A stretch of DNA of 22,277 nucleotides, from the IMG/VR virus record IMGVR_UViG_3300044970_001522, positions 1 to 22,277 of that record; one strand, 5' to 3'. The stretch is from a virus. Its lineage: Duplodnaviria; Heunggongvirae; Uroviricota; Caudoviricetes. Below are positions 259-16,119 of the stretch, piece by piece; positions within the stretch are counted from its first letter, which is position 1; the number at the start of each line of letters is the position of its first letter. The position numbers and the translations under genes are program-made. The notes beneath the pieces are model-generated. The model made no database searches. It worked only from the letters and a program-made list of their open reading frames with translations, and was not told where the DNA came from.

Positions 259-276
259 TTTCACAGTTAATCCCAC

Positions 277-414: not shown

Positions 415-442
415 TTAGAGAGGAGGGTGACCGCCCTAACTC

Positions 443-486: not shown

Positions 487-529
487 TAAAGTATGGAAAA
501 CACCGCCCCCTCGCTGTGGGATTCTCTGG

Positions 530-886: not shown

Positions 887-889
887 CCC

Positions 890-1373: not shown

Positions 1374-1542
1374 AAGAGACGGGGAAGACGCGGAACTGTT
1401 CCGATTTTGGGCACAAGAAATGTGCTCTAACCGCAGACAGGTATCCAACGCTTTAGAGTGGTGCCGAACACCATCCGAAGTTCGAAGCGCACTCTCGGCG
1501 ATTCGTGCGCTGAACAAAGCTTGTCCAAAAAACAACACCTGA
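1363..1542 (+). CDS. Hypothetical protein, 59 aa
   Basis: Internal ATG (1363) of track ORF 1312..1542, overlapping upstream gene end. Confidence 0.6.
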   Translation: MGTERDGEDAELFRFWAQEMCSNRRQVSNALEWCRTPSEVRSALSAIRALNKACPKNNT

Positions 1543-1554
1543 GGGATACCTGTC

Positions 1555-1704
1555 ATGGCGTCAAACGTGAAAGACAACACCGTTGAAGTTCGCTTGCTGA
1601 GTGAGATCCCGTATCAAATTCCCGTAGTGAGAGAGCCCGAGTGGAAGCGAAGCGTCTACAAGCAAATTCAAGCCGAGTTTCGACTCGATCGAGAAAGATG
1701 CTAA
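1555..1704 (+). CDS. Hypothetical protein, 49 aa (not in ORF track)
   Basis: ATG..TAA, MASNVKDNTVEVRLLSEIPYQIPVVREPEWKRSVYKQIQAEFRLDRERC; preceded by GAGGG; fills gap before tRNA-Thr. Confidence 0.6.
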   Translation: MASNVKDNTVEVRLLSEIPYQIPVVREPEWKRSVYKQIQAEFRLDRERC

Positions 1705-1724
1705 GGTAGGGCCGGGGAGAACCC

Positions 1725-1796
1725 ACCCACGTAGCACAGCGGTAGTGCAGCCGTTTCGTAAGCGGCAGGTCGCTGGTTCGAATCCAGTCGTGGGTT
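1725..1796 (+). tRNA. tRNA-Thr(CGU), no encoded CCA
   Basis: Acceptor ACCCACG/CGTGGGT, D-stem GCAC/GTGC, anticodon stem GCCGT/GCGGC with loop TTCGTAA (CGT 1757-1759), T-arm GCTGG-TTCGAAT-CCAGT. Confidence 0.92.
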
Positions 1797-1861
1797 TTGC
1801 CCCCTTGTCCACTTCCCTAAGCCAACCTTGGTTACTACCCTCTAACTCCCGCACAAAACAC

Positions 1862-2181
1862 ATGACCGCACCTGATATTACATCAGTCGAAACCACCGGA
1901 AGCGTTGTAACCCCAGTGACGTATGAGACTGTATACTGTACGAAGTACGCCCTTTCCAAAGGAATTTTAAGGTCACTGGAGAGGCTACGGACCACGGAAA
2001 TTTCTCAGAAAAGCCCTATAAAGCCTACCGTACCCTATTTCTTGGCAGTAGCGACTGGCACCGAAGCTGGGACGAAGCAGTAGTGGACGCGGAGAGACGG
2101 TTAGGTCGGAAGATTGACTCACTGAAAAGGAAAATCGTTGAGTTAAACCAGCTTAAGTTTGTAGAGGTTGACCGACCCTGA
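1862..2181 (+). pseudogene. Phage hypothetical gene split by a -1 frameshift near 1964-1972
   Basis: Frame of ATG 1862 reads ..TKYALSKGIL. The -1 frame (open 1927-2181, no ATG) continues KVTGEA..DWHRSWDEAVVDAERRLGRKIDSLKRKIVELNQLKF. The join resembles a common phage family pattern (KYALTxGI..WHxTxEEA..KIxSL) from memory. Confidence 0.65.
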
Positions 2182-2230
2182 ACCTTGTCTGTGCTGTGGC
2201 TCAAGGTTGCCCTTTCCACCTGAACAAGAA

Positions 2231-2293
2231 CGGGTAACCGGTTGCCGTAGGGCGGTTTCCCGGCTTGTTTCTGCGGAGCAGAAGCGGTATACT
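2231..2293 (+). promoter_or_regulatory. Promoter cassette copy 2 (full length, with spacer hairpin)
   Basis: CGGGTAACCG (2231), GGGCGGTTTCCCGGC (2250), TTGTTT (2265), 17 nt, TATACT (2288). Confidence 0.85.
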
Positions 2294-2319
2294 TACTTTA
2301 GTGCAAACCCTCAAGTCCA

Positions 2320-2484
2320 ATGACCCCCCTCGAAGCCTTTGAAACAATCTACAGCAGGTTGAACTTTCTGGAACGTGATTGTTTGTATGGCGAAGAAGCT
2401 GAGGTTGTTCGAGAGGCACTAGACTCAATGGCCATACTTTGTGGTGGTTATTTTCCACCCGAACCCGACTCCGAATCCTACTAA
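2320..2484 (+). CDS. Hypothetical protein, 54 aa (not in ORF track)
   Basis: ATG..TAA, MTPLEAFETIYSRLNFLERDCLYGEEAEVVREALDSMAILCGGYFPPEPDSESY; first ORF after promoter copy 2. Confidence 0.65.
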   Translation: MTPLEAFETIYSRLNFLERDCLYGEEAEVVREALDSMAILCGGYFPPEPDSESY

Positions 2485-2540
2485 TGTTGTTAAGTAAGCA
2501 CAGTGAAAGAGCTGACCCCCCAAACCGAACTTGGTGTGAA

Positions 2541-2993
2541 ATGAGTAAGGAAACTGATGATCAGAGCTTAGCACCACGTATACTAGCAATGTGCAAGAGG
2601 CGTGGTTGGTCACTGCACTGGTCGGCTCGTGGCGCATACCTACACCTTGAGTCATCAGAACTAATTGAGGCGCTTCGTGGAAAGCGTGGTGACCCGAAGT
2701 CGGAAGCCGCAGATGTTCTGCTTGTTTTGATGTCAATCACAGAGGCTAATGGGATCTCCTGGTCAGACGTTGTTGCGCAAGCTACAGCAACCTGTGCACG
2801 GCTGGAGACTTGCGACCCGTACCCTGGAGAAGAGAGACAAGAGATTGAACGCGCCATGATTCAAACCCCTCACACTCGCTCTACCCCGTTTCGAATGCCT
2901 GCACAAAATACAGTCTGGACCCTTGTTACTGCGTTTCAAACTATACTCTTGTGTTGGGAAATTGCGGTGGCCTTAGACCTTTTTCCCCAATAA
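2541..2993 (+). CDS. MazG-like nucleotide pyrophosphohydrolase
   Basis: All-alpha NTP-PPase ExxE..ExxD signature: LESSELIEA..KSEAADVLLVLM; start moved to ATG 2541 within track ORF 2439..2993. Confidence 0.7.
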   Translation: MSKETDDQSLAPRILAMCKRRGWSLHWSARGAYLHLESSELIEALRGKRGDPKSEAADVLLVLMSITEANGISWSDVVAQATATCARLETCDPYPGEERQEIERAMIQTPHTRSTPFRMPAQNTVWTLVTAFQTILLCWEIAVALDLFPQ

Positions 2994-3143
2994 AATGCTA
3001 GCATACATCCCTGTTTTAGACAGGGAGCCATTTTGTTATCCTCATTCGGGGGCAGACACTCCGGTGTTCCTACCTCGAGTAGCTTGGATTTCGGCTCGGT
3101 CTGGCTCTCAACCTGGTTTCTGGACGCACTGCGCATACCACTA

Positions 3144-4040
3144 ATGACTCTAACTACAAGAACCGCCCTACAACGCCTGATACAACTTGAAGACCGCAAA
3201 GGACCTGCCCCGGCAATCGCAAATGCCTGGACCGACGCTATCGCCGATGCTCGCGCTGCCCTAAGGGCAGAACCAGAAGAGGAGCAGTTGCGCCTAGTCA
3301 AGCAAGGTATTGCGTTCTGCTTTGACAAGTTTCGGCCTGGCCCCTTTGAAGCCCGTTACATTGACCCGTGGGTTGTAGCTGACGTGTTCGGGCCAGAAGC
3401 GTTGGCCGAGTTCGGCGGGTCCATACCTTCACCGAAGCAGGGGCAGAGTGACGCCGTCTTGGAAGGCAGCTTCCGAAACTGGTACGAAATTACCCACGGC
3501 TCCCCCTATTTTAGATCCATTCCCCTTTGCGATGCAATTCGTTGGGTCCAGCACCTGCTACAGCGCAGTGCCCAATCAGAGCCGGGGCCGAGCCTAGCCG
3601 ATGTTAGACAACTGTGCGCAGACAACGAAATTTCAATGGTTGTTGACTCAAACGACTTTGACACCGTTGTTGTCGCAATTCTAGAGATCGTTCGCACCGC
3701 ACTTGCCCGTAGGGTAGCTTTACCACCCCTGATCACGGGAGTGGACCAGTGGTATCCCGACTTCGCAGACTGGCTTGAGCGTGAGATGCCAGAAGGCACA
3801 GTTATAGGTGATCCGTTGTGGTGGGCTTCGAAGATTGCTGACCGAATCATCTGCACCCCCGCCCTGCTCCAGCAGGTCTCCACCCAGAAAGCGCCGAAAC
3901 GGGTAGAGGGGGTGAGGGAGTTAGTGGAAGAACTGGAACTGATGGCCAAGCGTGCCGCAGATGCTCTTCAGTTTGGTGATGCTCACTTTCTCTTCCGCAC
4001 CGTCGCCCTGCTCCAACAACTACAAACCGAACAGCCATGA
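3144..4040 (+). CDS. Mosaic phage hypothetical protein (ARAAL/EPGP module family)
   Basis: ATG 3144 inside track ORF 3033..4040; modules AIADARAALRAEPE and EPGPSLADV..IVRTALAR. Confidence 0.75.
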   Translation: MTLTTRTALQRLIQLEDRKGPAPAIANAWTDAIADARAALRAEPEEEQLRLVKQGIAFCFDKFRPGPFEARYIDPWVVADVFGPEALAEFGGSIPSPKQGQSDAVLEGSFRNWYEITHGSPYFRSIPLCDAIRWVQHLLQRSAQSEPGPSLADVRQLCADNEISMVVDSNDFDTVVVAILEIVRTALARRVALPPLITGVDQWYPDFADWLEREMPEGTVIGDPLWWASKIADRIICTPALLQQVSTQKAPKRVEGVRELVEELELMAKRAADALQFGDAHFLFRTVALLQQLQTEQP

Positions 4041-4732
4041 CAACATCAAATGACTGGGCAAAAGCACTTACGAGCTTTGTCGATGAGATTGGAGGCGATG
4101 GCCCTTCTCTTTGGCAGTGGGCCGGAATTACTCCGACTCCAGAAAAAGTTGTGGACTACCTTCGAGATCAAGTCCATTATCTTATAGCGCTGTACACGCA
4201 CCCTATGCCTATCGCTACCCGCCCCCTCACGGTTGATGATCTTGCGGATATAATGCGGGGTGACACACTTAACCCAATTACCGCTGGTTTTACGGTAGAA
4301 GACCTTGCTCGTCATCTGCTAACGCACCCTGCTACTGCACCGTTGCTTAATTCCGCACTACACACACACTCTGGTACACCTGCCTTAGAAGAAACAGACC
4401 GGCTCGCAGTTGACCAGTTTGCCGCTGCAATGAAACTTAAACTTTCCCGAAAGAGCAAAGAAGGCAAGCAAGGGTGGAAAGAAGCATCCGCTGAGCACCT
4501 GTCTCGTCTTCTATGCGAACACATTCGCAAAGGGGACCCCGTAGATGTTGCAAACTTTGCCATGATGCTACATCAGAATGGTCAAAGCATTTTACCGGAT
4601 TGCACACCCATGGTAGACGTGGGCGCCTTGATTCATACTCTTACTCGTGCTGCGAACTTAATACAGGGGCAGATGGAGAGGATAGCCGAACTTGAGGCGC
4701 AAAATGTTGAACTTGGACGGTTAGGTTGGTAG
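4037..4732 (+). CDS. Phage hypothetical protein with KGDPVDVANFAMM domain
   Basis: ATGA overlap with upstream stop; LAVDQFAAAMKLKL..GW..HIRKGDPVDVANFAMML is a recurring phage motif. Confidence 0.8.
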   Translation: MTTSNDWAKALTSFVDEIGGDGPSLWQWAGITPTPEKVVDYLRDQVHYLIALYTHPMPIATRPLTVDDLADIMRGDTLNPITAGFTVEDLARHLLTHPATAPLLNSALHTHSGTPALEETDRLAVDQFAAAMKLKLSRKSKEGKQGWKEASAEHLSRLLCEHIRKGDPVDVANFAMMLHQNGQSILPDCTPMVDVGALIHTLTRAANLIQGQMERIAELEAQNVELGRLGW

Positions 4733-4877
4733 CTAGCGCACAATGACCCTGGGGTTACGAGTTTACTTTAACCGAGTGCTACCAACACTAAGGGGTGTGA
4801 AATCACCCTTTAAACGAATGTTCTCTGGGCGTACCACCGGAAATTCTACATCCGTTTTCGACACTCAGTTCTAGTCT

Positions 4878-6554
4878 ATGAAACCATTAACCCTGGTCGA
4901 GCTAATTGCAAAGGAATCGTTGGTCGAGCTGCGCTACAGCGATGCCCTAAGCAGTACTCTCCCCAGCTTCAGCCGCTTTCAAGTAACAGTGAACGGGGTT
5001 CGCCGCAATATCACTGGACCGGCAACGCTAATTGACGGTGGAAAAACCGTTCGCTTAAATCTTGCCTCAGCGGTCCTCGCCACAGACACCGTCGCTGTCA
5101 CTTACACCAGCGTCAACAGATTCGACAAGATCGGTTACGGCGACATTCGCTCTCTCAGCACCAATGAAAAGGCGATCTTCTTTCGCAACCAAAAGGCCGC
5201 CAACATCACGCCACCGGTCAATCAGCCTGGTCCCGACCAAGTTCTGTTCTGGATTAGCTGTGCTCTGGAAGCAATCCAATCAGCGGGCAGCAATGGAAAA
5301 CCTGGAGTGCCTCCTACCACGGGTAGTCGTCTGATGGCAATGCTTTCCACGGCAATGTTGGACACTCGGGCAGCGTTCGGTGATCAAGTGGCCTTCTACA
5401 AGATCGACCAAAACGCACCCGCTGCCGCTAGCGTAGATGCCGCGTTGATTGGTGCGGCCTACCGCATTCTTTCGTTGGAGCTTCCTGGAGAACAAGAAAT
5501 ACTCCAAAAGCACTACAAATCAAGTCTGGCCAATCTGACGGGAACCTCGCAGAGCATTCACTCTGGCTTAGCCCTGGGGTCCGGAATAGCTGATCAAATC
5601 CGCTCACTAAGATCCAACGACGGATCAACGAATAATACACCTTATCAACCACCTGCTAACGGCCTTCCGGGGTACACTTGGATGCCCGCTGTGACGGGGC
5701 CTACTGCAGGTGCAGCCTTGGGCCCAAACTGGGGATCAGTCTCCCCGTGGGGTTTAGAAAGTAAACACACATATGGGACCAACGGTCTACAGGGCAAGCC
5801 AGACGTGAATTTGGACCTGTACGCCAGAGACTTAGCTGAAGTGCGTTTGTACGGCGGACTAACAAACACTGCAACCACCACCTCGCGCCGCAATGCTGAT
5901 CAGACGGACATTGCTCTTTTTTGGGCTTACGATCGGCCTGACACCTATAGGCCGTATGGTCAGTTGTTTGATATTGCGACTGAAATAGCAACGAACCAAG
6001 CAACAACCCCAGCTAACAACGCTAGGTTATTCGCTAGCTTAAGCGTCGCCATGGCAGACGCCGTAACCGTGGCATGGAAGGAAAAATACGACAATGTTCA
6101 GCCTCGACCGTGGGACGTAATCACTGGCAGTTTTTCCGACGAAGACGGCTCAGACCTCACTGTCCGAGACACAGAGTGGAAGTCGTTGCTTTCCTCCATA
6201 AACGGAGTACAATCTCCACCGTTCCCTGACTTTATATCTGGCCACTCAGTAATGGGCGGGGTATTTGCGAGTGTAATGACACACTTTTTCGGCGACAAGC
6301 TCGTCTGGTCAACGACTTCGCAGGACCTTCCCGGAAAGTCTCGATCTTTTGACGGTCGCATTGCAAACGGGAGTCTAGGTGATATAAGCTCCGTGACAAG
6401 CTCTAGCCTGTGGAAAGATAACAGCTTCTTTGAAGCTGGCTTGGAAAATGCCATAGGACGTGTTTATGGTGGCGTTCACGTTCGAGAAGCATGCGAGGAT
6501 TCTTTTCTCTTGGGAGTTGAGATAGGAAATTCCACAGTGCAAAAGCTGAGCTAG
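4878..6554 (+). CDS. SwmB-repeat domain fused to vanadium-dependent haloperoxidase / PAP2-superfamily domain
   Basis: N-terminal about 110 aa SwmB-like repeat (LRYSDAL..FQVTVNG..VRLNLASAV..DTVAVTY). C-terminal PAP2/VHPO motifs KYDNVQPRP (Kx6RP), PPFPDFISGHS (xSGH), GRVYGGVH (Rx5H). Confidence 0.85.
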   Translation: MKPLTLVELIAKESLVELRYSDALSSTLPSFSRFQVTVNGVRRNITGPATLIDGGKTVRLNLASAVLATDTVAVTYTSVNRFDKIGYGDIRSLSTNEKAIFFRNQKAANITPPVNQPGPDQVLFWISCALEAIQSAGSNGKPGVPPTTGSRLMAMLSTAMLDTRAAFGDQVAFYKIDQNAPAAASVDAALIGAAYRILSLELPGEQEILQKHYKSSLANLTGTSQSIHSGLALGSGIADQIRSLRSNDGSTNNTPYQPPANGLPGYTWMPAVTGPTAGAALGPNWGSVSPWGLESKHTYGTNGLQGKPDVNLDLYARDLAEVRLYGGLTNTATTTSRRNADQTDIALFWAYDRPDTYRPYGQLFDIATEIATNQATTPANNARLFASLSVAMADAVTVAWKEKYDNVQPRPWDVITGSFSDEDGSDLTVRDTEWKSLLSSINGVQSPPFPDFISGHSVMGGVFASVMTHFFGDKLVWSTTSQDLPGKSRSFDGRIANGSLGDISSVTSSSLWKDNSFFEAGLENAIGRVYGGVHVREACEDSFLLGVEIGNSTVQKLS

Positions 6555-6573
6555 TACTTGTTGTACCTTGACT

Positions 6574-6617
6574 AGGGGTTTCCCCGCCTTGCTTTCTTGG
6601 GGGTCACACGATATGAT
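6574..6617 (+). promoter_or_regulatory. Promoter cassette copy 3
   Basis: AGGGGTTTCCCCGCC, TTGCTT (6589), 17 nt, TATGAT (6612). Confidence 0.7.
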
Positions 6618-6745
6618 TATACCACGAGCCCAGTACCCCCTTTTCTTTCCGCCCCTGCACAAGGAGCCCACGTATATGCCCAACCAAAGCATCCGAGACC
6701 TACAGGATTCCTTAAATAAACCTGACATAACGTTTTGGAATAGAC

Positions 6746-7402
6746 ATGTTCAACCCTAACTTGCGTGAACTGTGCGCTGAACTCCTATTCGCCTTAGATG
6801 AGGCTTCTGAGGCACTTGACCGTACGAGCGACTGCTGCTATGTCAGTTTTCCAGAGGTCTACGCTCAGTGCTCAGACCTAATCGGAAAACACGACAAGCT
6901 CCTTGAAACAGCTCGGGCCGCACTGAATGGGCCGGTATTAGACGAAACCAACGATCTCGCCATAGGGCGTCGTGGACTAAACAACACAGAGGTCCTTAGA
7001 GACGCCATCTCTTGGTTAGGTTGGAGACCAGAGGGGAAACCCAGCCTGCCGGGCTCTGACATCATTTCAAACTCAGACGAGATACGACGTTGGAACGCCA
7101 TTGCTCGCGCCCTGGCTACCTTAGCAGGTCCCCTTTCGTGTTACGGGAAAGTCTATGATGCTTGCCCGGACCATGAAGAAGGTACTAGTAGGGTCCTGAG
7201 CATAGCTAAAGAGATCGACAAGTGTTTCGGCGCTGTCGAGAAGATTCGGCTCGTTATGTCTACGGAAGAACAACAGCGGTACGCGGCACGGATCGCTAAA
7301 ATTGATGCTCGAAACAAGGTAGCTCAACAAAACTACACGAAAACTATAGAAGACTTTAAAAAGTCGATGCCGCCAACCAAGCACCGCACTAAAACGCCAT
7401 GA
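6746..7402 (+). CDS. Mosaic phage hypothetical protein (LRELCAELL/ARAAL family)
   Basis: ATG start; NLRELCAELL..LLETARAAL; ATGA overlap with next gene. Confidence 0.8.
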   Translation: MFNPNLRELCAELLFALDEASEALDRTSDCCYVSFPEVYAQCSDLIGKHDKLLETARAALNGPVLDETNDLAIGRRGLNNTEVLRDAISWLGWRPEGKPSLPGSDIISNSDEIRRWNAIARALATLAGPLSCYGKVYDACPDHEEGTSRVLSIAKEIDKCFGAVEKIRLVMSTEEQQRYAARIAKIDARNKVAQQNYTKTIEDFKKSMPPTKHRTKTP

Positions 7403-8043
7403 GTTATAACTTTCGTAAGCTTTGCACAAGGCTGCTCGCAGCTTGCAATTCTTACTTGTTCTTTACAGACGCTGAGAAAACCACTGCGTCCCAAATGGAG
7501 GAGCGACTGGAGGGGGTCCTGAAAGAGGCTTCCCTTGCACTGAGCACCCTTGTTTCAGAAGACCCCACTTACATTCCCTCAGGCCAGGGTCCGGAGTCCC
7601 GTTTGACGTCTGAGAATCTGGCCTGGGTGGACGAGAAGCTGAAGGAGCCGGGCTGGGCCAGGCAATTTCTGATCTCTGCCGGCATTCTAGATTCCGACGG
7701 TCACTGGAATCGTTCTTACTGGCCTGACGACGGCGAAGCCGGTAACACTTTAGGTTATTACATGGACCACCCTGAGTTCTACTGCGACCTAAAAGAGGAC
7801 GTTGTTGTGCAGAGTGTTTATTCTGGGGGACAAGAAACCGATCAGGATGTATTTGAAGAGCAAAGTAACAAACCCACACGCTCAGAAATTCTGAGTTGGA
7901 TAGAAGACCGATCAGCTTGGGGCTCAGACGACTACCTTGGCCGAGTGGCTCTTATAGTAGAAGAAGCCCTGGCATACTGGTCCCCTAAGTCTAGAAGGGG
8001 GGCGGTTTCCCCTCCTCGTTTTGCGGAGGAAAAGCCGCTATAA
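7399..8043 (+). CDS. Mosaic phage hypothetical protein, related to the upstream gene
   Basis: NFRKLCTRLL N-terminus; KPTRSEIL..IVEEALAYW module; C-terminal 14 aa encoded by promoter cassette. Confidence 0.8.
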   Translation: MSYNFRKLCTRLLAACNSYLFFTDAEKTTASQMEERLEGVLKEASLALSTLVSEDPTYIPSGQGPESRLTSENLAWVDEKLKEPGWARQFLISAGILDSDGHWNRSYWPDDGEAGNTLGYYMDHPEFYCDLKEDVVVQSVYSGGQETDQDVFEEQSNKPTRSEILSWIEDRSAWGSDDYLGRVALIVEEALAYWSPKSRRGAVSPPRFAEEKPL

Positions 8044-8044
8044 T
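8000..8044 (+). promoter_or_regulatory. Promoter cassette copy 4 (inside 3' end of CDS 7399..8043)
   Basis: GGGCGGTTTCCCCTCC, TCGTTT (8016), 17 nt, TATAAT (8039). Confidence 0.8.
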
Positions 8045-8067
8045 AAAGGAGACAGAATAGAGACCTC

Positions 8068-8241
8068 ATGTCGCTAACACAACTTTCCATCCAAGACCTG
8101 GCTGAGCTCGGGAGGCTGATACGTCTTCTTGAAGGCGACGCTGAGTGCATCGCCGCAGAGCAACTCGACTTGATTAGCCTAACGGACAAAGACTTGCTGA
8201 GTGCTGTCCGCATCCTACGACTTCTCCTTTCAACCCTATGA
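8068..8241 (+). CDS. Hypothetical protein, 57 aa (not in ORF track)
   Basis: ATG..TGA, MSLTQLSIQDLAELGRLIRLLEGDAECIAAEQLDLISLTDKDLLSAVRILRLLLSTL; ATGA overlap with next gene. Confidence 0.7.
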   Translation: MSLTQLSIQDLAELGRLIRLLEGDAECIAAEQLDLISLTDKDLLSAVRILRLLLSTL

Positions 8242-8438
8242 CACTCACAGTGATCCAAATTTTGACAACGATCTACATCTCAGGTGTTGTGGTAGTTGCA
8301 CTTGTTCACCGAGTGGAACTAATTTTAGATGATGTTTTCACATGGGGTACGTACAAGTCTCCGGTTAAACCAGCGAAGGTTGCGTTGCTTTGGCCTTTGT
8401 TCCTCCTGAACAACTTTCTGAGACGTGTTCTCAAATGA
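8238..8438 (+). CDS. Small membrane protein, 66 aa
   Basis: Hydrophobic N-terminal helix and ALLWPLFL motif; coupled start. Confidence 0.7.
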   Translation: MTLTVIQILTTIYISGVVVVALVHRVELILDDVFTWGTYKSPVKPAKVALLWPLFLLNNFLRRVLK

Positions 8439-8474
8439 GTTCGTTCCCTTTATATTTGTGAAACTGTGAAGCTC

Positions 8475-8894
8475 ATGCCTACACAACAACACTACTCACA
8501 GGGTTTAGCTGAGCTTGGACTCGACCGGTCCCGACGGGAAATTAGAAAACTTCGCGACCTCTGCGCAGCCATCTACCAAGTTTGCGGGGTTCTCAACGCG
8601 AGCGTAGAGGTACTTGACGCTTTGTCCGCCGCCAGCACCGGTGACTACGACGGAAATCCCTTGGACCTCCTTCCGTACAACTCGTTGAACCCTGTCCCTA
8701 AGACCGAAAGGTTACCTGGATCTGAAGATTGTGACTCGAAGGGGTACTGCTGGTGGGGTAATGAAGCCATAGCTGGAAGTTCGCACCCGGTGTTTTCCTG
8801 TAGTTGCTGGAAATACTCTGCCAGGGTTGGGGACGGCAGCCACTGGTTGCCCTACTACGCACTTCCTGTGGTACCTGCTCGCCCCAAGCTCTAA
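8475..8894 (+). CDS. Phage hypothetical protein with ERLP..DCD..G.CWW..HWLP module
   Basis: ATG 8475 within track ORF 8466..8894; TERLPGSEDCDSKGYCWW..HWLPYYALPV. Confidence 0.75.
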   Translation: MPTQQHYSQGLAELGLDRSRREIRKLRDLCAAIYQVCGVLNASVEVLDALSAASTGDYDGNPLDLLPYNSLNPVPKTERLPGSEDCDSKGYCWWGNEAIAGSSHPVFSCSCWKYSARVGDGSHWLPYYALPVVPARPKL

Positions 8895-9077
8895 ACTGGC
8901 ACGGGTCACAAATCAGACGGCAAGCAGAAAGACACCCCCCTAAAAGTATGCGAACTTTCTAAAAGTTTTCAGAAAAGTGGGTGGCTTGAGCGTCCCACTC
9001 CTCTTTTCACGAGCGTTTCCCCCAAGCTTACGACACAAATTTTCCAGTACTTAGTCTCTCAGACCCACTCACAAACG

Positions 9078-9536
9078 ATGACCATTCAAACAAGACAAGC
9101 AGTTTTTGAAACCAACAGTTCAAGCACTCACTCACTCAGTATCTCTTCAAGTTCCACAGATCTCCTTGATACTTTGCCCTTGAACGAACAGGGGGAAGTG
9201 GTCCTCAATGGGGGCCAGTTTGGCTGGGAAGTGGAAGACTACTCCGATGCGAGCACTAAGGCGAGTTACGCGGCCATTTACGTTTCCGAGTGGTCCGGGG
9301 AAAAGAGTGCGGAGTTCAAGGAAGTTCTTGACACAGTGATCAAGCAGCAAACGGGTTGCTCAAACGTTGTATACGATTTATCTACAGACTGGTCTCACCC
9401 ACGGGAAACATCGTACATCGACCACCAGTCTGTTGAAGGGGGTCAGCTAGACTACTTGTTCGAAGACCCAGAACTTTTGCGACAGTTTATCTTCAACCCT
9501 CGCAGTGTCCTTCACACCGACAATGACAACTACTGA
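9078..9536 (+). CDS. Uncharacterised protein with N-terminal RxxVFETNSSSTHS motif
   Basis: MTIQTRQAVFETNSSSTHSLSI; overlaps start of radical SAM gene. Confidence 0.85.
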   Translation: MTIQTRQAVFETNSSSTHSLSISSSSTDLLDTLPLNEQGEVVLNGGQFGWEVEDYSDASTKASYAAIYVSEWSGEKSAEFKEVLDTVIKQQTGCSNVVYDLSTDWSHPRETSYIDHQSVEGGQLDYLFEDPELLRQFIFNPRSVLHTDNDNY

Positions 9537-10431
9537 GACAGTCCTTCACGCGTACAAAAACGGTAACTGCAACGTTACTTTGTGGTCTGGCGGCACCAAG
9601 ACTCGAGAGACTCTGGACGCAGACCACCCTTGGGCAGAACACCCGGAAAGCATTGACATTAAGGTTACAAACTTTTGCGACCTGGCGTGCCCTTACTGCC
9701 ACGAAAACTCCACTCTCGAAGGAAAGCACGGGGATCTGAACCGCTTACTTACAGTTTTGGAGCCTTTACCTCCAGGGGTGGAGCTGGCGATCGGGGGAGG
9801 AAACCCGCTATCTCACCCTGACCTTATACCGTTCCTTCGCAAAGTTAAGACCAAAGGGTTGGTGGCTAATTTAACCGTAAACGAGAGACACCTGGAACCC
9901 TACAAGTTTCTTTTGAGCTACTTGCGACGGAAAGATCTAATAAAAGGTATTGGTGTTTCCGTTACAGGTTCGAACCTACCTCTGGTAAAACAATTTCTGG
10001 AAAACAATCCGCACACCGTGTTTCATGTGATTGCTGGAGTGCACTCGCCCAGAGTTCTATCCGACCTAAGCTCCCTCCCAAACAGCAAAACTCTTGTGCT
10101 CGGGTACAAAACCTTTGGCCGTGGTATCCAGTTCTACGGTAACAAGACCAAGAAGCTTCTTTCCGAATGGTACCGGGCCATCCCAACTTTCCTTGGAAAG
10201 ACACACTTGTCGTTCGACAACCTTGCTGTGGAACAACTTAACATCAAGAGATTGCTCACGAACGAGGGTTGGTCAAAGTTTTACATGGGGGACGACGGTA
10301 GCTTCACAATGTACATCGACGCTGTCGAAGGAACGTACGCAAAAACAAGTAGGAGCAGCGAACGCACCTTGTTCGACAGCACTGACTTAATCTCTTACTT
10401 TCAAAGCTTGACTCCGAAGAGGTTCGGTTAA
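9523..10431 (+). CDS. Radical SAM protein
   Basis: CxxxCxxC motif CDLACPYC after ESIDIKVTN; GGGNP (GGE-like) motif; ATG 9523 overlaps upstream gene by 14 nt. Confidence 0.93.
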   Translation: MTTTETVLHAYKNGNCNVTLWSGGTKTRETLDADHPWAEHPESIDIKVTNFCDLACPYCHENSTLEGKHGDLNRLLTVLEPLPPGVELAIGGGNPLSHPDLIPFLRKVKTKGLVANLTVNERHLEPYKFLLSYLRRKDLIKGIGVSVTGSNLPLVKQFLENNPHTVFHVIAGVHSPRVLSDLSSLPNSKTLVLGYKTFGRGIQFYGNKTKKLLSEWYRAIPTFLGKTHLSFDNLAVEQLNIKRLLTNEGWSKFYMGDDGSFTMYIDAVEGTYAKTSRSSERTLFDSTDLISYFQSLTPKRFG

Positions 10432-10459
10432 CCCCTCTCCCTGGGGTGGTTTTCCTGGC
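10425..10459 (+). repeat. Decayed/partial promoter cassette
   Basis: CGGTTAACCC (10425) and GGGTGGTTTTCC (10444) at the canonical 19-nt offset, but no -35/-10 at the expected positions. Confidence 0.55.
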
Positions 10460-10583
10460 TACAAGGGGGGACCACAAACTACGGACAGACAGGTTGTCCC
10501 TCTTTACAAATCTCAAACGACGAAACATGACTACTGCAAAAATAGTTAAGCCGCACCAATCAATTGAAACCAACACAAAACAA

Positions 10584-10943
10584 ATGAAAAAAGCTATTTA
10601 CAAGTTCTTCTTCGACTGCGGAAGAATGGGCGAACTTGAGGGGATTTTCGTTGCCAAACCTAAGGATGTCAAAAGGTTGGTTGATAGTGGTGAAGAACTT
10701 TACTTCGGCGAAGTTCTCGGCAAGCACAGCGAAATTTCCGGAGTTGTCTCCGTGGAAAATTTCATCTTCGTAACAGATGAGGAAGAAATTGTAAACTTCT
10801 TCGAGATTCACGAGATGGCAACGGGCATTAACCCGCTTAGTTACTTCGAAGAAGAGGGTGCTGAGGATGACATTAATGAAGAGGACAGTGGTGGCGACGT
10901 TCTAAGCGAGGACCATTCTTTTGAGGGCTTCCCGTGGAACTAA
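10584..10943 (+). CDS. Phage hypothetical protein (YKFFFDCGRMGELEG..YFGEVLGKHSEI family) with acidic tail
   Basis: Recognisable recurring phage motif; alternative start ATG 10527. Confidence 0.8.
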   Translation: MKKAIYKFFFDCGRMGELEGIFVAKPKDVKRLVDSGEELYFGEVLGKHSEISGVVSVENFIFVTDEEEIVNFFEIHEMATGINPLSYFEEEGAEDDINEEDSGGDVLSEDHSFEGFPWN

Positions 10944-11158
10944 TCAACGCTAAACTGATTGACAAGCTAAGGTTCGTAGCCTCGAAGCGCCACCTTTTAG
11001 ACCGAATGGACGAGCAGGGGGCATATGACTTTGACCTGAGCAACATAGACAGGGTGGACGACGCCTTTGACAGTGGATGCAGAGTCGGAGAGATTTATTT
11101 TGCACGAGAACTTTGCACACTATTACGCATAGAGTACACAATTGAGTCCGACGATTAA
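10934..11158 (+). CDS. Hypothetical protein, 74 aa
   Basis: GTG start overlapping upstream stop. Confidence 0.7.
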   Translation: MELINAKLIDKLRFVASKRHLLDRMDEQGAYDFDLSNIDRVDDAFDSGCRVGEIYFARELCTLLRIEYTIESDD

Positions 11159-11172
11159 CCCCCAAGACACCA

Positions 11173-11523
11173 ATGATCACACTCCGTACAACCTTTAACG
11201 ACCTCTTAAGCAAACTTCAAGGGCTTAGCCTCAAGCAAACTGGTTACTGGGTTGACGACCTTCCGGAAGACATCTACGAAAACTTCTTCTACGACTCCAA
11301 CTACGAAGTTGTGGCTAGGGACTTAGACCTTGATAGGCACAGGTGGTACGAAATTTCCACAGAAGTGATCAAGATTCACGGGTCTTTCCTTGGAATACGC
11401 CAAGTTACCCACATGAAGAACGAAAACGACAGTGTCGGAGACGCTAGCTTCGTGTATCAATTCTTTGAAATGCGGGAGAAAACAGTGACTTCCTACGAAA
11501 AGGTGCCTAACGCTGCTGAGTAA
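11173..11523 (+). CDS. Hypothetical protein, 116 aa
   Basis: ATG start, same-strand packing, acidic/aromatic composition. Confidence 0.8.
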   Translation: MITLRTTFNDLLSKLQGLSLKQTGYWVDDLPEDIYENFFYDSNYEVVARDLDLDRHRWYEISTEVIKIHGSFLGIRQVTHMKNENDSVGDASFVYQFFEMREKTVTSYEKVPNAAE

Positions 11524-11646
11524 GTCCGACGAGCTCTACGTCTTAACCTTACCTGGTTGGTGTGAGTCCACTGGAGTTCAGTCCGAGATCTCTTTCGCAC
11601 AGCTGTTGGGGGTGCCTCTTTCTCTACACATTCCTGCGCCCCTAGG

Positions 11647-11709
11647 CGGTTAGCCGGTTGCTCTAGGGCGGTTTCCCCGCTTGTTTTCTCGAAGAGAAAG
11701 CGGTATAAT
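11647..11709 (+). promoter_or_regulatory. Promoter cassette copy 5 (full length, with spacer hairpin), upstream of tsf
   Basis: CGGTTAGCCG (11647), GGGCGGTTTCCCCGC (11666), TTGTTT (11681), 17 nt, TATAAT (11704). Confidence 0.9.
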
Positions 11710-11746
11710 ACATATAACCTGAAAAGTCCCCTCAAACCTGAGTAAC

Positions 11747-12355
11747 ATGGCTTCCATCCCCCCTACAATCCTACAAGTTAAGTCCCTGCGAGAAAAGACC
11801 GGTGCTGGCCTGATTCTCTGCAAAGAAGCACTCATTTTTTCTAGCAGTGACGAAGCCGGTGCGATCACGTGGTTGCGGCAGAGAGGAGTGGCCTTAGCCG
11901 ATGGTAAGGTTGGTCGGAGCGCACGAGAAGGTACTGTGGGCAGCTACATTCACACTGGCGGTAAGGTTGGAGTCCTTATCGAGGTCAACTGCGAAACAGA
12001 TTTTGTGGCCAAATCGGAGCCTTTTCAGGATCTCGTACGCAATTTGGCCATGCAAGTTGCAGCGTGCCCCTCTGTGTGCTACGTGTCGATCTTTGACATT
12101 CCTGAGGAGACTCTCCTTGAGGAGACACGGATTGAGTCGGGAAAAGCAGACCTTTCGAGTAAACCTGAGGCAATTCGAAACAAGATCGTTGAGGGTCGTG
12201 TGGCAAAGCGATTCAGAGAGCTGTCTCTCATGGACCAGCCCTACATCAAAGACAACTCAATGAGTATCGAAACATACGTGGAGAACTTCGCTGCGGTAGT
12301 TGGCGAAAACATCGTTGTGAAGCGATTCGTACGTTTTGTCCTCGGCAGCTCCTGA
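11747..12355 (+). CDS. tsf: Translation elongation factor Ts, short (cyanobacterial-type)
   Basis: VKSLREKTGAG..CKEAL, WLRQRG, EG.VGSYIHTGG, EVNCETDFVA, AMQVAACP, DQPYIKD, GENIVVKRFVRFVLG. Confidence 0.97.
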   Translation: MASIPPTILQVKSLREKTGAGLILCKEALIFSSSDEAGAITWLRQRGVALADGKVGRSAREGTVGSYIHTGGKVGVLIEVNCETDFVAKSEPFQDLVRNLAMQVAACPSVCYVSIFDIPEETLLEETRIESGKADLSSKPEAIRNKIVEGRVAKRFRELSLMDQPYIKDNSMSIETYVENFAAVVGENIVVKRFVRFVLGSS

Positions 12356-12369
12356 GTCTCCTTAAACAA

Positions 12370-12636
12370 ATGTGGTGCCCAGCCCTTTTACCATTGTGGA
12401 TGCGAATGCCCCTGCCTCCGAGGGGCAAAAGACTCGAAGAGCTTCGAGCTGAGACCCTCGCCCTGAAGGAGGAAGAACTTTCCCTGAAGGAGGAAGAACT
12501 TTCTTTTCGAGAAGACACACTGAGGCTAAGAACCGAAGAGCTGAGGCTAAGAGCCCAGACCCTGGCCCTTAAAGAGCTGGGGCTTAAAATTGAGTTAAAC
12601 GAGTTAAACAAGTTGAAACAACCCCGAAAACAATGA
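12370..12636 (+). CDS. Heptad-repeat coiled-coil protein, 88 aa
   Basis: LALKEEE-LSLKEEE-LSFREDT-LRLRTEE-LRLRAQT-LALKELG heptads. Confidence 0.7.
   Translation: MWCPALLPLWMRMPLPPRGKRLEELRAETLALKEEELSLKEEELSFREDTLRLRTEELRLRAQTLALKELGLKIELNELNKLKQPRKQ
12461..12502 (+). repeat. 21-nt exact tandem duplication
   Basis: CCCTGAAGGAGGAAGAACTTT x2 (12461-12481, 12482-12502); a second 21-nt-period pair CTGAGGCTAAGA at 12520 and 12541. Confidence 0.95.
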
Positions 12637-12845
12637 ACATCGAACTTGCAACACCTGGAACACGAGTAGCCTACGTCCCACTTCATGCCTCAGGATGCCT
12701 AGACCACTTTGACGTTGAGTACGGCACGGTGTCCTCTCACAATGGCAAGAATGTTTTCGTAAAGTTCAACGAGGCAGTGTCCCGTTTTGGGTGGGACGGG
12801 GCTACATCTCGGGCTTGTGACCCTGCCGACTTAGTGAAGGTTTGA
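12633..12845 (+). CDS. Phage hypothetical protein, 70 aa
   Basis: ATGA overlap; G.RVAYVP.HA..EYGTVSS.N..VFVKF pattern. Confidence 0.8.
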   Translation: MNIELATPGTRVAYVPLHASGCLDHFDVEYGTVSSHNGKNVFVKFNEAVSRFGWDGATSRACDPADLVKV

Positions 12846-12859
12846 CCGATTAACCCTTA

Positions 12860-12903
12860 GCGGGGTTCCCTGTCTTGTTCACGTTACAAACACTCGCTAC
12901 ACT
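12860..12903 (+). promoter_or_regulatory. Promoter cassette copy 6
   Basis: GCGGGGTTCCCTGTC, TTGTTC (12875), 17 nt, TACACT (12898); CGATTAACCC at 12847. Confidence 0.75.
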
Positions 12904-12939
12904 TAGTTATCACACTCCGAAAACAACCTGAGCTTAAGC

Positions 12940-13197
12940 ATGGACAAGCCCTTCCTCTTAATTGCCGGCGATCATTACTACCCTTCACAAGGGTCAGAAG
13001 ATTGGATAGCTCGTTTTGAAACTGTTAGCTAGGCTAGAGAGCAAATCGAGTACGTTGACTGCCCTAAGTTCTTCAAATCTGGCCCCATGAAAGGCCAACT
13101 AAAAAGCAACGACATCACCTACCGAATTAAGTGCAGCAAAGACCCAGACCGGGAGTACGACTGGTACGAGATTGTTGACGTAAGGGACTGGGATTGA
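12940..13197 (+). pseudogene. Phage hypothetical gene interrupted by in-frame TAG at 13030-13032
   Basis: MDKPFLLIAGDHYYPSQGSEDWIARFETVS*AREQIEY..YDWYEIVDVRDWD reads as one protein across the amber codon. Confidence 0.7.
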
Positions 13198-13239
13198 AAA
13201 CTGCTAGTAACACACGTAGACAAACCAGTAACTGGAAAA

Positions 13240-14376
13240 ATGACAATTACACGAAAAGAAATTGAAGACGGGATGATCCTGTTTTGCAAGTCAGGCAGCC
13301 ACGCCTATGGTCTCAACACCGAGATGTCTGACTTGGACTTTAAGGGCATCTGTGTGGCTCCACAGCGGTTTTACACCACTCTCGAAACATTTGAGCAAAA
13401 GGATAAAGGTTGGGCAGAGCACGGGAAGGAAACTATCGAAACTAGATTCCCTGAGTTAGATAACTCGGATTCAGTGGTGTACGGCATTCGCAGGTACCTG
13501 AGCTTGTTGCGGTCGCAGAACCCTAACATTTTAGAGATGCTCTGGCAAACTCCAGACAGTTATCTGTACCTAGACTTTCTAGGGCAGTCTCTAATTGACA
13601 ACCGAAAGAAGTTAATTTCCAAAAGAATCTCTGGCACATTCGTTCAGTACGCAAGGTCCCAGATCAAGAAAATGGAGACTCACCGCAAGTGGCTGTTAGA
13701 CCCTCCGACACAGCGACCGACATGGGAAGACTACGGGGTTTCTTCGCCGAGCTTAACCCCCTCTCAAATCGAGTCATTCATTGAGTACTTGTACCTGCTG
13801 ATTAAAGACAGAATCGAATACTACCAACCTTCAGTCGAGCTGTACGAGTTACTCAACGACCGAGTTGATTGGAAAGGAATTTTGAAGCAGAGTGTCTTAC
13901 CGGAAGAGTGCTTCGACGAGACGCAGAAAATCACGAGGGCAAGTTACGAGTACATGGCCCTTCTTCACTCAAGCCAGCAGTACCGGGCCGACTTAAAAAG
14001 ATGGAACAACTACCAAGATTGGCTAGTCAATCGGAACGTAAAACGGTCCGAAATCGAGCGAGCTTGCGGGTACGACGGGAAGAACGCCAGCCACTGTGTT
14101 CGACTTATGAAAATGGCCATTGAGGGAATGCGAACCGGAGAGCTTCTTGTGAATAGAAAGTTGGTTGGAGACGCAGATTTTCTTCTGGACATTAAGTACG
14201 GCAGGATTACGTATGACGAACTAAGCACAATTGTAACTCAGCTCTTTAAGGAGGCTGAGCACGTGGTGAAGAACGAGTGCGTCTTGCCGAACACGGTAGA
14301 TGACCAACTCATCAACACTCTCTGTGCTGAGACTGTGGAAAAATTTCAAAGTCTCGGTTGTATTGAGAACCGGTGA
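13240..14376 (+). CDS. Pol-beta superfamily nucleotidyltransferase (RlaP / T4 NrdC.11-like)
   Basis: GSHAYGLNTEMSDLD (GS..DxD) motif, QNPNILEML, and YDGKNASHCVRL C-terminal motif typical of phage members. Confidence 0.88.
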   Translation: MTITRKEIEDGMILFCKSGSHAYGLNTEMSDLDFKGICVAPQRFYTTLETFEQKDKGWAEHGKETIETRFPELDNSDSVVYGIRRYLSLLRSQNPNILEMLWQTPDSYLYLDFLGQSLIDNRKKLISKRISGTFVQYARSQIKKMETHRKWLLDPPTQRPTWEDYGVSSPSLTPSQIESFIEYLYLLIKDRIEYYQPSVELYELLNDRVDWKGILKQSVLPEECFDETQKITRASYEYMALLHSSQQYRADLKRWNNYQDWLVNRNVKRSEIERACGYDGKNASHCVRLMKMAIEGMRTGELLVNRKLVGDADFLLDIKYGRITYDELSTIVTQLFKEAEHVVKNECVLPNTVDDQLINTLCAETVEKFQSLGCIENR

Positions 14377-14885
14377 GCGCAAGGGTAACATTTTCTGTGC
14401 GAATGCATACTACTCCCATGACAATTGAGACTGAAGCCGTCGAAAAAATTGAGTTGGTTTTCTCGCACATAAAAAACGTGCAGAGGAGCTGCTATAAGCT
14501 TGGCCTGAAGCTTATGAAACGTGGCGACATTGAGCTGGGGCGCAACTTAATCGCAAACGGGCAGATTCATGACAATTCAAAGTTCAAGGGAATTGAATTT
14601 GCACACCTTTTTCACTCAGATCCCTTGCTATCTGAAGTCGTAAAGCACCACCAGTCAGTAAACCCTCACCACCCAGAGTACTGGGGAAGCATTCACGACA
14701 TGCCCAAAGTTTACGTCGCTGAGATGGTTTGCGACTGGTACGCAAGGTCCACCGAGTTCGGAACAGGAGTGAGAGAGTGGATTGACGACAAGGCAACCGG
14801 AAAGTTCTCTTTTACAGTCGATGACCCCATCTACGCGACCATACAGGAAATGCTATCGTTGCTCCTTGAGCCTTCCTTCACCTGA
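14373..14885 (+). CDS. HD-superfamily-like protein (DUF5662-like)
   Basis: HIKNV..IHDNSKF..HHQSVNPHHPEYW..EMVCDW; GTGA overlap with NTase stop. Confidence 0.75.
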   Translation: MSARVTFSVRMHTTPMTIETEAVEKIELVFSHIKNVQRSCYKLGLKLMKRGDIELGRNLIANGQIHDNSKFKGIEFAHLFHSDPLLSEVVKHHQSVNPHHPEYWGSIHDMPKVYVAEMVCDWYARSTEFGTGVREWIDDKATGKFSFTVDDPIYATIQEMLSLLLEPSFT

Positions 14886-14914
14886 CTCCTGCAATTTCTT
14901 GGTTAGACCAGAGG

Positions 14915-14977
14915 CGGTTAACCGCTTGCTCCGGGGCGGTTTCCCGGCTTGTTTCTGCGTAGCATAAACGGTATAGT
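14915..14977 (+). promoter_or_regulatory. Promoter cassette copy 7 (full length, with spacer hairpin)
   Basis: Perfect palindrome GCGGTTAACCGC (14914-14925), GGGCGGTTTCCCGGC (14934), TTGTTT (14949), 17 nt, TATAGT (14972); near-identical to copy 2. Confidence 0.9.
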
Positions 14978-15030
14978 ATTTACATGAGCAGCGGTGCTCA
15001 GACACTTAGCCCCCTAACTCAGGAGACCCA

Positions 15031-15273
15031 ATGGACTTTCAGGAATTTGTCGAATGGGCTTCCAACCAACCCCAGACCAAGGGTATTCGGTGGGGTCAAC
15101 ACCTTGTTAACCAGCTTATGCACTGCAGCCCGGTCGCATACAGCAGAGTTCCCGAGGACCTAGACCCCTTCTACAGCGACACTCTTGTCCCAGGGTTCCT
15201 GGCCTTCCTAGGCGATAACTGGGGGAGTCTTACCACTCCGCTGTACCACCCTGAGATGGAGGAATGCGCTTAG
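15031..15273 (+). CDS. Hypothetical protein, 80 aa
   Basis: AGGAG Shine-Dalgarno upstream; RWGQHLVNQL..DPFY pattern. Confidence 0.8.
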   Translation: MDFQEFVEWASNQPQTKGIRWGQHLVNQLMHCSPVAYSRVPEDLDPFYSDTLVPGFLAFLGDNWGSLTTPLYHPEMEECA

Positions 15274-15440
15274 TCCCCCGGTCAAACAAAGCCAGGGCAG
15301 CCCTGGAAAAGTCGATGGGCGGTGACAGCGCCGTTCGGCTGGAAAAACGCACTGGCAACAAAGTACTTGTCTCTTCCAAGAGTGGGTACTGCGTGTGGGT
15401 CGACCTTTCGGGAGACCCGAACTGGGATCTTGTCCTTTAA
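15264..15440 (+). CDS. Hypothetical protein, 58 aa (not in ORF track)
   Basis: ATG..TAA, MRLVPRSNKARAALEKSMGGDSAVRLEKRTGNKVLVSSKSGYCVWVDLSGDPNWDLVL; GGAGG upstream. Confidence 0.75.
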   Translation: MRLVPRSNKARAALEKSMGGDSAVRLEKRTGNKVLVSSKSGYCVWVDLSGDPNWDLVL

Positions 15441-15449
15441 CCCTGCCCC

Positions 15450-15749
15450 ATGAAGTTTATACTGAGTTTAACCCTCTGCACTCTATGCTTGTTTTCTTCG
15501 GCACAACCTGCTTTCGCCTACCACCCGGAAGGGTGGAGACCTTTCTGGTCAAAGGACGCTCAGAGAGTCACAGAGGAAAACTGCAAGTTAGTCGCTGGAG
15601 CACAAAGTGTTGGGACACAAACTTGGGAGTTTCTCTACAAGTGCCCCAACGGTGACTCCTTCTGGTCCGAGGTTCTCATTCCATTCAACCCCACACTGCT
15701 TACTCCGCCCTTCTCATCAAATGGAAAAGCGTCACCAGACTCAGACTGA
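15450..15749 (+). CDS. Exported protein with signal peptide, 99 aa
   Basis: MKFILSLTLCTLCLFSSAQPAFA: Sec-type signal with AxA site. Confidence 0.75.
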   Translation: MKFILSLTLCTLCLFSSAQPAFAYHPEGWRPFWSKDAQRVTEENCKLVAGAQSVGTQTWEFLYKCPNGDSFWSEVLIPFNPTLLTPPFSSNGKASPDSD

Positions 15750-15897
15750 AGTCCCCTCGCAGACCTTGGGAGACCCCATAGCCCTGAGTAGCACAGTTGT
15801 GGATGGCCTCTGGATCCTGATAATTGTGGCACTATCCCTCTCTGCTCTACTCAGGGTCTCCCGAAGCAGGGTCTTTCGCCAGAAGTCCCGGTTTTGA
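15721..15897 (+). CDS. Small single-pass membrane protein
   Basis: ATG 15721 in track ORF 15607..15897; LWILIIVALSLSALL followed by basic tail. Confidence 0.55.
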   Translation: MEKRHQTQTEVPSQTLGDPIALSSTVVDGLWILIIVALSLSALLRVSRSRVFRQKSRF

Positions 15898-15936
15898 CTA
15901 CACTAAAAACACTCTCCGGTAACTCCCGCAAAGTCC

Positions 15937-16107: not shown

Positions 16108-16119
16108 ACTGTTAACACA

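Follow-up and report, generated by a model that had tools for sequence, protein, structure and literature searches.

Hairpin-forming repeats at a fixed place in the promoter spacers of a cyanophage-like virus

The window analyzed here, 22,277 nucleotides of IMG/VR virus record IMGVR_UViG_3300044970_001522, is the first 22.3 kb of one 189.9-kb viral contig (G000; 49.5% G+C) and contains nine copies of a repeated cassette built around a predicted sigma70-like promoter. In cassettes of this family, the spacer between the -35 and -10 elements holds a short inverted repeat that can fold into a hairpin. We found that this hairpin-forming repeat, at its fixed place in the spacer, is real, covarying, and under selection.

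A paired repeat at a fixed place in the promoter spacer

Genome-wide, we curated ~41 cassettes, which span 0.4 to 98.5 kb of the contig and share the + orientation, and three pattern scans of IMG/VR and of a relative, G001, brought the wider family to 134 distinct cassette cores. Each cassette runs from box A (GGCGGTTTCCC) through three G/C bases, a -35 element (TTGyyt), and a 17-nt spacer to a -10 element (TATAnT). The spacer and the 3' half of the -35 element together make a stem of 5-8 bp, which about half of the cassettes carry. The register of this hairpin is fixed, with the closing C 14 nt ahead of the -10 element and the loop centered 12 nt (triloops) or 11.5 nt (tetraloops) ahead of its first T. 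Positions T1, A2, and T6 of the -10 element were invariant in an alignment of 41 cassettes (A1). As judged from sequence conservation, the promoters are under purifying selection; they are predicted to be sigma70-like and are presumably used by host RNA polymerase with its primary sigma factor.

Four of the nine window copies carry the repeat, as a preliminary description of this DNA had reported. Their loops (GGA, GGA, GAA, and GTA) are all closed by C-G and begin 13 nt before the first T of TATAnT, or 14 nt before it for the loop at 8025. The parts of these four copies are listed here.

2251-2293, + strand: core of cassette 2, with box A at 2251-2261, -35 TTGTTT at 2265-2270, a 17-nt spacer, and -10 TATACT at 2288-2293
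2269-2283, + strand: spacer hairpin of cassette 2, TTCTGC-GGA-GCAGAA, with mini-hairpin heptamer GCGGAGC at 2273-2279
8001-8044, + strand: core of cassette 4, with box A at 8001-8011, a degenerate -35 TCGTTT at 8016-8021, and -10 TATAAT at 8039-8044
8019-8033, + strand: weak spacer repeat of cassette 4, TTTTGC-GGA-GGAAAA, with one G.G mismatch
11667-11709, + strand: core of cassette 5, with box A at 11667-11677, -35 at 11681-11686, and -10 TATAAT at 11704-11709
11685-11699, + strand: spacer hairpin of cassette 5, TTTCTC-GAA-GAGAAA
14913-14977, + strand: cassette 7, with second box GGCGGTTAACC at 14913-14923, box A at 14935-14945, and -10 TATAGT at 14972-14977
14931-14947, + strand: GC hairpin of cassette 7, CCGGG...CCCGG, followed by a T-rich -35 at 14949-14954 and flagged as terminator-like
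14951-14969, + strand: spacer hairpin of cassette 7, GTTTCTGC-GTA-GCATAAAC, with one C.T mismatch and heptamer GCGTAGC at 14957-14963

Single copies were assessed by RNA-folding z-scores against dinucleotide shuffles, which only two of the four window hairpins exceeded individually. The stem at 2269 (-10.1 kcal/mol as RNA, -4.8 kcal/mol as DNA) gave z -2.24, and the one at 11685, lengthened by U.G pairs up to the -10 hexamer, gave z -2.50. The hairpin at 14951 scored z +0.16 and the repeat at 8019 z -0.63; at 8019 the minimum-energy fold differs from the pairing first described, a GCGG/CCGC stem being favored in its place. Mini-hairpin heptamers are absent from the corresponding positions of the copies at 8019 and 11685, namely 8023-8029 and 11689-11695. 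The whole of cassette 4 overlaps the 3' end of an open reading frame (ORF) at 7399-8043, and the TAA within its -10 element (8041-8043) is the stop codon of that frame; this overlap may account for the degenerate -35 element and repeat of cassette 4.

Several comparisons across the family show that the repeat exceeds chance. First, a perfect stem of at least 5 bp was present in 18 of 40 cassettes, compared to 1.4 expected from mononucleotide shuffles (maximum 7 of 500) and 5.6 expected when columns were permuted among cassettes (maximum 13). Second, in the triloop register of alignment A1, 70.7% of cells were paired as opposed to 60.9 +/- 1.5% after shuffling (0/500), and partners slid by 1-3 columns paired in only 44-54%. 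Third, the stems covary, as 55 cells of A1 had changed on both sides versus 29.5 in shuffles (0/500). Finally, hairpins of the C-GDA-G form, which the preliminary description had singled out and expected to find in excess, did by themselves outnumber shuffled controls, at 5-6 of 41 versus 0.01-0.4. The tetraloop register was no better than shuffles over the whole of A1, because only ~9 of the 41 cassettes are tetraloop copies.

Stem and loop rules in the cassette family

At least eight stem types occur in the family, each perfectly paired, and the closing pair was C-G in 45 of 52 hairpins. The 33 triloops on perfect stems comprised 17 sequences; GNA loops accounted for nine of the 33, solely as GGA and GAA. 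The commonest stem (GTTTCTGC/GCAGAAAC, 8 bp) bore nine loops (ATC, TCT, CTC, GTC, AGG, CCC, TCA, GGC, and GGT), all of them non-GNA. Loops of the G..A kind were present in 17 of 24 stems of 5-7 bp versus 1 of 19 stems of 8 bp (Fisher 1e-5), counts that are not independent, as stem classes double as copy lineages. Among tetraloops, 9 of 10 were GNNA, and six of the seven distinct GNNA loops were GNRA. The 6-bp CTTTCC stem carried six different loops, every one G-N-N-A, and its class has the form CC-GNNA-GG. A C(TTCG)G loop was seen once, at the promoter at 35542, and T..C loops, which are G..A loops on the other strand, were absent from family hairpins.

Orthologous cassettes reveal how these parts change. 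In 26 orthologous pairs, sites differed at 1.3% in the -10 element, which was the slowest-evolving part of the cassette, 6.5-10% in the flanks, 10-11% in the arms, and 24% in the loop. At 14959, the loop GTA corresponds to TCG in the ortholog of relative L014, which has a different mismatch, and elsewhere TCT is replaced by GAC and GAGA by GTAA. Because the loops are hypervariable and GNA loops a minority, C-GDA-G is not a conserved feature. Moreover, short stems mostly carry G..A loops and 8-bp stems carry any loop, and therefore the stability of the fold, not C-GDA-G itself, appears to be what is selected. The simplest reading, we infer, is that selection maintains a threshold stability of the folded + polarity strand, and C-GDA-G is a minority solution within this general rule. 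Hence, of the loop motif proposed in the preliminary description, the enrichment of G..A loops with C-G closure in short stems stood, and conservation of the motif did not. The 134 cores constitute a natural mutagenesis series, in which the trade-off between stem length and a G..A loop can be seen.

It is improbable, in our judgment, that the repeat has no regulatory function and is a palindrome inherited by cassette duplication, its perfect pairing preserved by gene conversion between copies and by hairpin-templated repair of the quasi-palindrome type. The association of loop type with stem length, the invariant G and A of the seven GNNA tetraloops, the number of perfectly paired stem types, pairing above column-permuted and slid controls, and retention of the feature across relatives with flank differences of 8-10% all argue against this, even though strict complementarity without wobble would be the product of templated correction and the arms evolve like the flanks. 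Also compatible with mere inheritance, identical arms are common (the GTTTCTGC arm is present in 16 unique cores), the two GNA triloop sequences are each tied to a stem and perhaps identical by descent, and many cassettes lost the repeat and kept the promoter.

We consider it very improbable that the repeat is an operator at which a dimeric phage or host DNA-binding protein represses early promoters from the spacer. The spacer is a classical site of repression, complementarity is strand-symmetric, and the commonest arms are conserved with a free central 3 bp, as in lambdoid operators; yet at least eight arm sequences occur, with half-site spacing that varies by up to 3 bp, while each copy remains self-complementary and does not combine different half-site variants, and a protein that binds duplex DNA would exert no selection for G..A loops on one particular strand of short stems. 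We rejected an operator as the main explanation on these grounds of several arm types, different spacing, and strand-specific loop selection.

One hairpin with the family's commonest arms, TTTTCTGC-TCT-GCAGAAAA, is an orphan. It is located at ~246-290 of L285, a stretch of G001, directly after the apparent 3' end of a tRNA gene and without promoter boxes, and is the only clear non-promoter stem.

Action in RNA or in DNA

Promoter-early stem-loops (PeSLs) are known in the T4-type phages RB49/phi1, PST, and nt-1 (Arbiol et al., 2010, PMC2839356; Comeau et al., 2014, PMC4122927). In RB49/phi1, the PeSL stem-loop lies mostly between -35 and -10, or over -10; one PeSL stem-loop lowered lacZ read-through as much as rrnB T1; and PeSL cassettes are crossover points of gene shuffling (PMC2839356; PMC4122927), with one RB49 crossover mapped to the stem-loop's loop (PMC2839356). 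The cassettes described here are similar in that dozens of conserved intergenic copies lie amid small, variable genes, each copy combines a sigma70-like promoter with a stem-loop between -35 and -10 as in RB49/phi1, and gene-cassette breakpoints between relatives fall in the element. They differ in that the present phage is not T4-like, having a family A polymerase and a TerL nearest to that of Synechococcus phage S-CBWM1 (Aokuangvirus; 57.6% identity), that a GC-rich box with its own hairpin stands upstream where PeSLs have an AT-rich tract, and that the spacer stem is T-rich/A-rich in a strictly fixed register rather than polyG/polyC; in addition, the present cassettes are known from sequence alone.

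By these likenesses, the cassette is of PeSL design, a known kind found in a lineage where it was not described before. Thus, the hairpin, which the preliminary description took for a device of a promoter subset, is better regarded as part of the general design of a PeSL-type cassette. Cassettes of this type were previously described in T4-type phages of enterobacteria and vibrios, and here the same design orders ~100 kb in a large, cyanophage-like freshwater virus as well as in its relatives. The PeSL design thus probably offers phages a general way to pack and shuffle small genes.

We tentatively favor a reading in which the cassette is a PeSL-type composite of terminator and promoter, with the inverted repeat as its second stem-loop, and in which this repeat acts mainly in read-through RNA. 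The cassettes would separate small co-directional early or accessory genes, and the hairpin would exert its main effect in RNA read through from the upstream gene, where U.G pairs would lengthen its stem as far as the A/U-rich -10 sequence. The spacer hairpin and the GC hairpin upstream of it would jointly attenuate read-through or cap the 3' end, so that each small gene would be driven by its own promoter, and the shared cassette sequence would also serve as a crossover point for cassette shuffling. The grounds for this reading are that every copy would be transcribed by read-through, that GNRA and TTCG loops occur, that U.G pairs extend the stem to UAUAAU, and that PeSLs provide a precedent.

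Predictions of RNA folding are consistent with action in read-through RNA. In 22 of 41 cassettes, the RNA energies of spacer hairpins fell between -5 and -10 kcal/mol, the predicted RNA stem reaches the UAUAAU of the -10 element, and canonical T-tract terminators at other sites of the genome have loops of the same types as the family. A GC-rich hairpin forms from box A and its flanks, giving two stem-loops per cassette, and the T-rich tract after this hairpin doubles as the -35 element TTGyyt. The region upstream folds at -8 kcal/mol or better in 41 of 41 cassettes, and a terminator scan flagged the box A hairpins at 7997 (7997-8014), 11666 (11666-11682), and 14931 (14931-14947); the same scan did not call the spacer hairpin. 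Thus, compared to intrinsic terminators, the stem-loop in a co-directional intergenic region and the box A hairpin with its T tract fit, but the spacer hairpin is followed by CGG-TATAnT instead of a T tract. Box A may be the 3' arm of a cassette terminator as well as a recognition box. Near 35.5 kb and 67.4 kb of the contig, an exact inverted box A lies 8-10 nt upstream and produces a 10-11-bp stem. G.U pairs in predicted folds of the box A region numbered 61 on the + strand versus 35 on the - strand, a difference that we did not use as evidence because the + strand is G+T-rich.

Several observations weigh against action in RNA. First, the arms showed no tolerance of wobble such as RNA would allow, with 8 G.T (32 expected) and 12 A.C (36 expected) mispairs; at inner stem positions only, the counts were 5 and 4 events, too few to separate RNA from DNA. 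Second, + and - strand folds are equally stable, and GNA triloops closed by C-G have extraordinary stability as DNA and much less as RNA (PMC13037366). Third, the spacer hairpin is almost always found with the promoter core and lacks a following T tract, and canonical T-tract terminators are used elsewhere in this genome, for example near 75648 and 139572. Finally, approximately half of the cassettes have no good hairpin, and RNAalifold detected no consensus structure in 33 whole cassettes (87 nt), a set that mixes triloops, tetraloops, and decayed copies.

Some of the same observations point to a hairpin or cruciform in DNA, a reading that we regard as unlikely but well short of negligible. 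Extrusion driven by supercoiling would swallow the 3' half of the -35 element and break the -35/-10 geometry; host-type early promoters would be shut off or made sensitive to supercoiling, and the four-way junction may start the recombination that shuffles cassettes. The arms are strictly Watson-Crick, with G.T depleted like A.C, and both strands fold equally. The prevalence of C-G closure, the exact heptamers GCGGAGC and GCGTAGC, the single register that ties the hairpin to the promoter core, the scarcity of orphans, and the lack of a T tract also favor DNA, and the cost of extrusion would be cut by G(N)NA loops where stems are short and by added base pairs in the remaining stems. In N4, however, extrusion of such short stems at physiological supercoiling needs C-G closure and a loop with 5' G and 3' A (PMC4496689), and 18 of 19 eight-bp stems lack these loop bases. 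Otherwise, extrusion calls for arms much longer than 5-8 bp, single-stranded DNA energies are only -3 to -7 kcal/mol, and the G..A loops are confined to the + strand, a bias for which a cruciform by itself has no need. Moreover, the half of the cassettes without the repeat keep intact promoters.

Two further lines of evidence on extrusion come from gene content and recombination. A phage GyrA-like subunit is encoded just past the cassette region and a GyrB was not found, but S-CBWM1 also has a GyrA-like gene and yet has no spacer hairpins in its first 50 kb. Loops are wholly replaced between orthologs, breakpoints fall in or next to the hairpin, and the RB49 crossover lies in the loop, all of which would suit a recombinogenic DNA junction.

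The preliminary description compared these repeats with the early promoters of phage N4. The two share a 5-7-bp stem, a 3-nt loop, C-G closure, and GGA or GAA loops, and GCGGAGC, present at 2273-2279, is the heptamer of the N4 promoter hairpin (PMC13037366). N4 hairpins, however, have their center at -11 relative to the start site, in a conserved block of -17..+1; they need gyrase and SSB, and a giant T7-like virion RNA polymerase reads them on the template strand. By contrast, the loop in our cassettes would lie ~24 nt upstream of the predicted start, if the promoters are sigma70-type, and inside the -35/-10 promoter; G..A loops here belong to the non-template strand, the majority of loops are of non-GNA form, and no such polymerase was found. 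A PF00940 search of the contig and of G001, a 277-kb relative that is 98% complete, gave no match, with positive controls of the search also empty, and therefore the absence of a single-subunit (N4/T7-type) RNA polymerase rests also on PHROG and PDB searches of the giant ORFs; these are tail fibers and a tape measure by PHROG search and had no solved relatives in the PDB search. As an N4-type polymerase was not found, a strict N4 mechanism is unsupported, and of the N4 parallel the heptamer held up while the predicted position and the polymerase did not.

Another parallel is a construct in which the N4 P1 hairpin was engineered between -35 and -10 of rrnB P1; as summarized in PMC4496689, activity was abolished and novobiocin restored it (Dai et al., 1997). 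The construct shares with our cassettes a small hairpin in a sigma70 promoter spacer and provides an engineered precedent for gyrase-dependent shut-off in vivo. It was laboratory-made with an N4 loop, whereas extrusion of the natural spacers here is hypothetical. The DNA mini-hairpins GCGNAGC and GCGNNAGC (Hirao and co-workers; PMC13037366) resemble the spacer repeats in their C-G closure and G..A loops, and heptamers of this kind occur in two of the four window copies, but most family loops are of other kinds, and RNA GNRA versions explain the tetraloops equally well.

In its most specific form, which we find quite doubtful, a DNA reading would have the spacer repeats be natural mini-hairpins or small cruciforms that make a set of host-type promoters sensitive to supercoiling, with loop and stem tuned to a common extrusion threshold. 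The lone GyrA-like protein may then help to set the switch, and the extruded junction may start cassette recombination. If the promoters are supercoil-sensitive in this way, they would mirror N4 and be what nature offers in parallel to the engineered rrnB P1/N4-hairpin switch, and action as DNA would make them the first natural promoter set so regulated with host polymerase. Overall, the interpretation in the preliminary description is partly supported, and the hairpin is possibly a DNA structure. The family allows a clean bench test of whether small promoter hairpins act as RNA or as extruded DNA.

Phage lineage, cassette shuffling, and other features

The virus is an uncultured freshwater cyanophage-like myovirus related to S-CBWM1. 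The contig encodes a tail sheath, baseplate J, and TerL, and its family A DNA polymerase has a gamma-like exonuclease domain; a megablast search of cultured phages with the window gave zero matches. The large ORFs of the contig all have + orientation. Cassettes are confined to the small-gene half, where they occupy intergenic gaps ahead of small ORFs, EF-Ts among them, and the large-gene half has none. Two phage sigma proteins would presumably steer host core polymerase to other promoters, those of the large-gene half. No GyrB-like partner of the GyrA-like gene, which lies just downstream of the last promoter cassette, was found in the contig or in G001; S-CBWM1 is annotated with a similar GyrA-like gene. 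These genes are located as follows.

G000 99333-101354, and at 171.4 kb of G001: GyrA/ParC-like type IIA topoisomerase A subunit (PF00521, 1e-93)
G000 177904-178518 and 183385-184113: two small sigma-70-family proteins with region 2 only (PHROG 351)

Relatives carry different gene sets between the same cassettes, as indicated by joints of distant window parts at cassettes. Four lake metatranscriptome runs were compared with positions 1-20000; their contigs, which derive from 90-99% relatives and break at repeated cassettes, cannot show starts, ends, or strand and were used solely for gene-content breakpoints. Contig joints at cassettes linked 6562 to 14916, 12450 to 14913, 7999 to 14934, 11688 to 1, and 18802 to 471, and loose contig ends fell at 2250, 2291, 11645, 14929, 14951, and 18779. 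All joints were inside or beside cassettes. In relatives L056 and L077, one cassette is truncated directly after the 3' arm.

In S-CBWM1, a relative in culture, a few promoters (at 2660, 32322, and 37377) have the form GCCGGTTTCCCGCCC-TTTACA-N17-TAAGCT, with box A and without a spacer hairpin, and a scan of the first 50 kb of that phage found box-A-like promoters and no spacer hairpins. Box A therefore looks older than the spacer hairpin. The ninth window copy, at 21675, has a promoter in the style of S-CBWM1. The remaining window copies and the genes downstream of the hairpin-bearing cassettes are listed here.

444-486, + strand: cassette 1, first of the series, with -10 at 481-486 and a spacer with a 3-bp repeat only
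2320-2484: ORF downstream of cassette 2
6574-6617, + strand: cassette 3, with -10 TATGAT at 6612 and without a spacer hairpin
8068-8241: ORF downstream of cassette 4
11747-12355, + strand: EF-Ts gene (Pfam EF_TS, 4.6e-31), driven by the predicted cassette 5 promoter
12861-12903, + strand: degenerate cassette, with -10 TACACT at 12898 and without a spacer hairpin
15031-15273: ORF downstream of cassette 7
18780-18822, + strand: cassette 8, with -10 TATAAT at 18817 and a weak 4-bp TTTC/GAAA repeat with a 6-nt loop
21675-21718, + strand: ninth copy, with box A at an ORF start, then TTTACC-N17-TAAGCT, and without a spacer hairpin

A second box, GGCGGTTAACC, is present exactly 22 nt upstream of box A in 20 of 41 cassettes genome-wide, with window copies at 11645-11655 and 14913-14923, and holds the perfect palindrome CGGTTAACCG. 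Its spacing of two helical turns suggests a candidate protein site.

Outside the window, at 119.5-121.3 kb of the contig, a separate repeat family has four copies. Each consists, in order, of a variable 6-7-bp hairpin, GATATAGTCTGAA, a second hairpin (CTTTCTG-GAAA-CAGAAAG type), and a conserved ~30-nt tail, and these copies could represent a further type of promoter/leader or a family of small RNAs.

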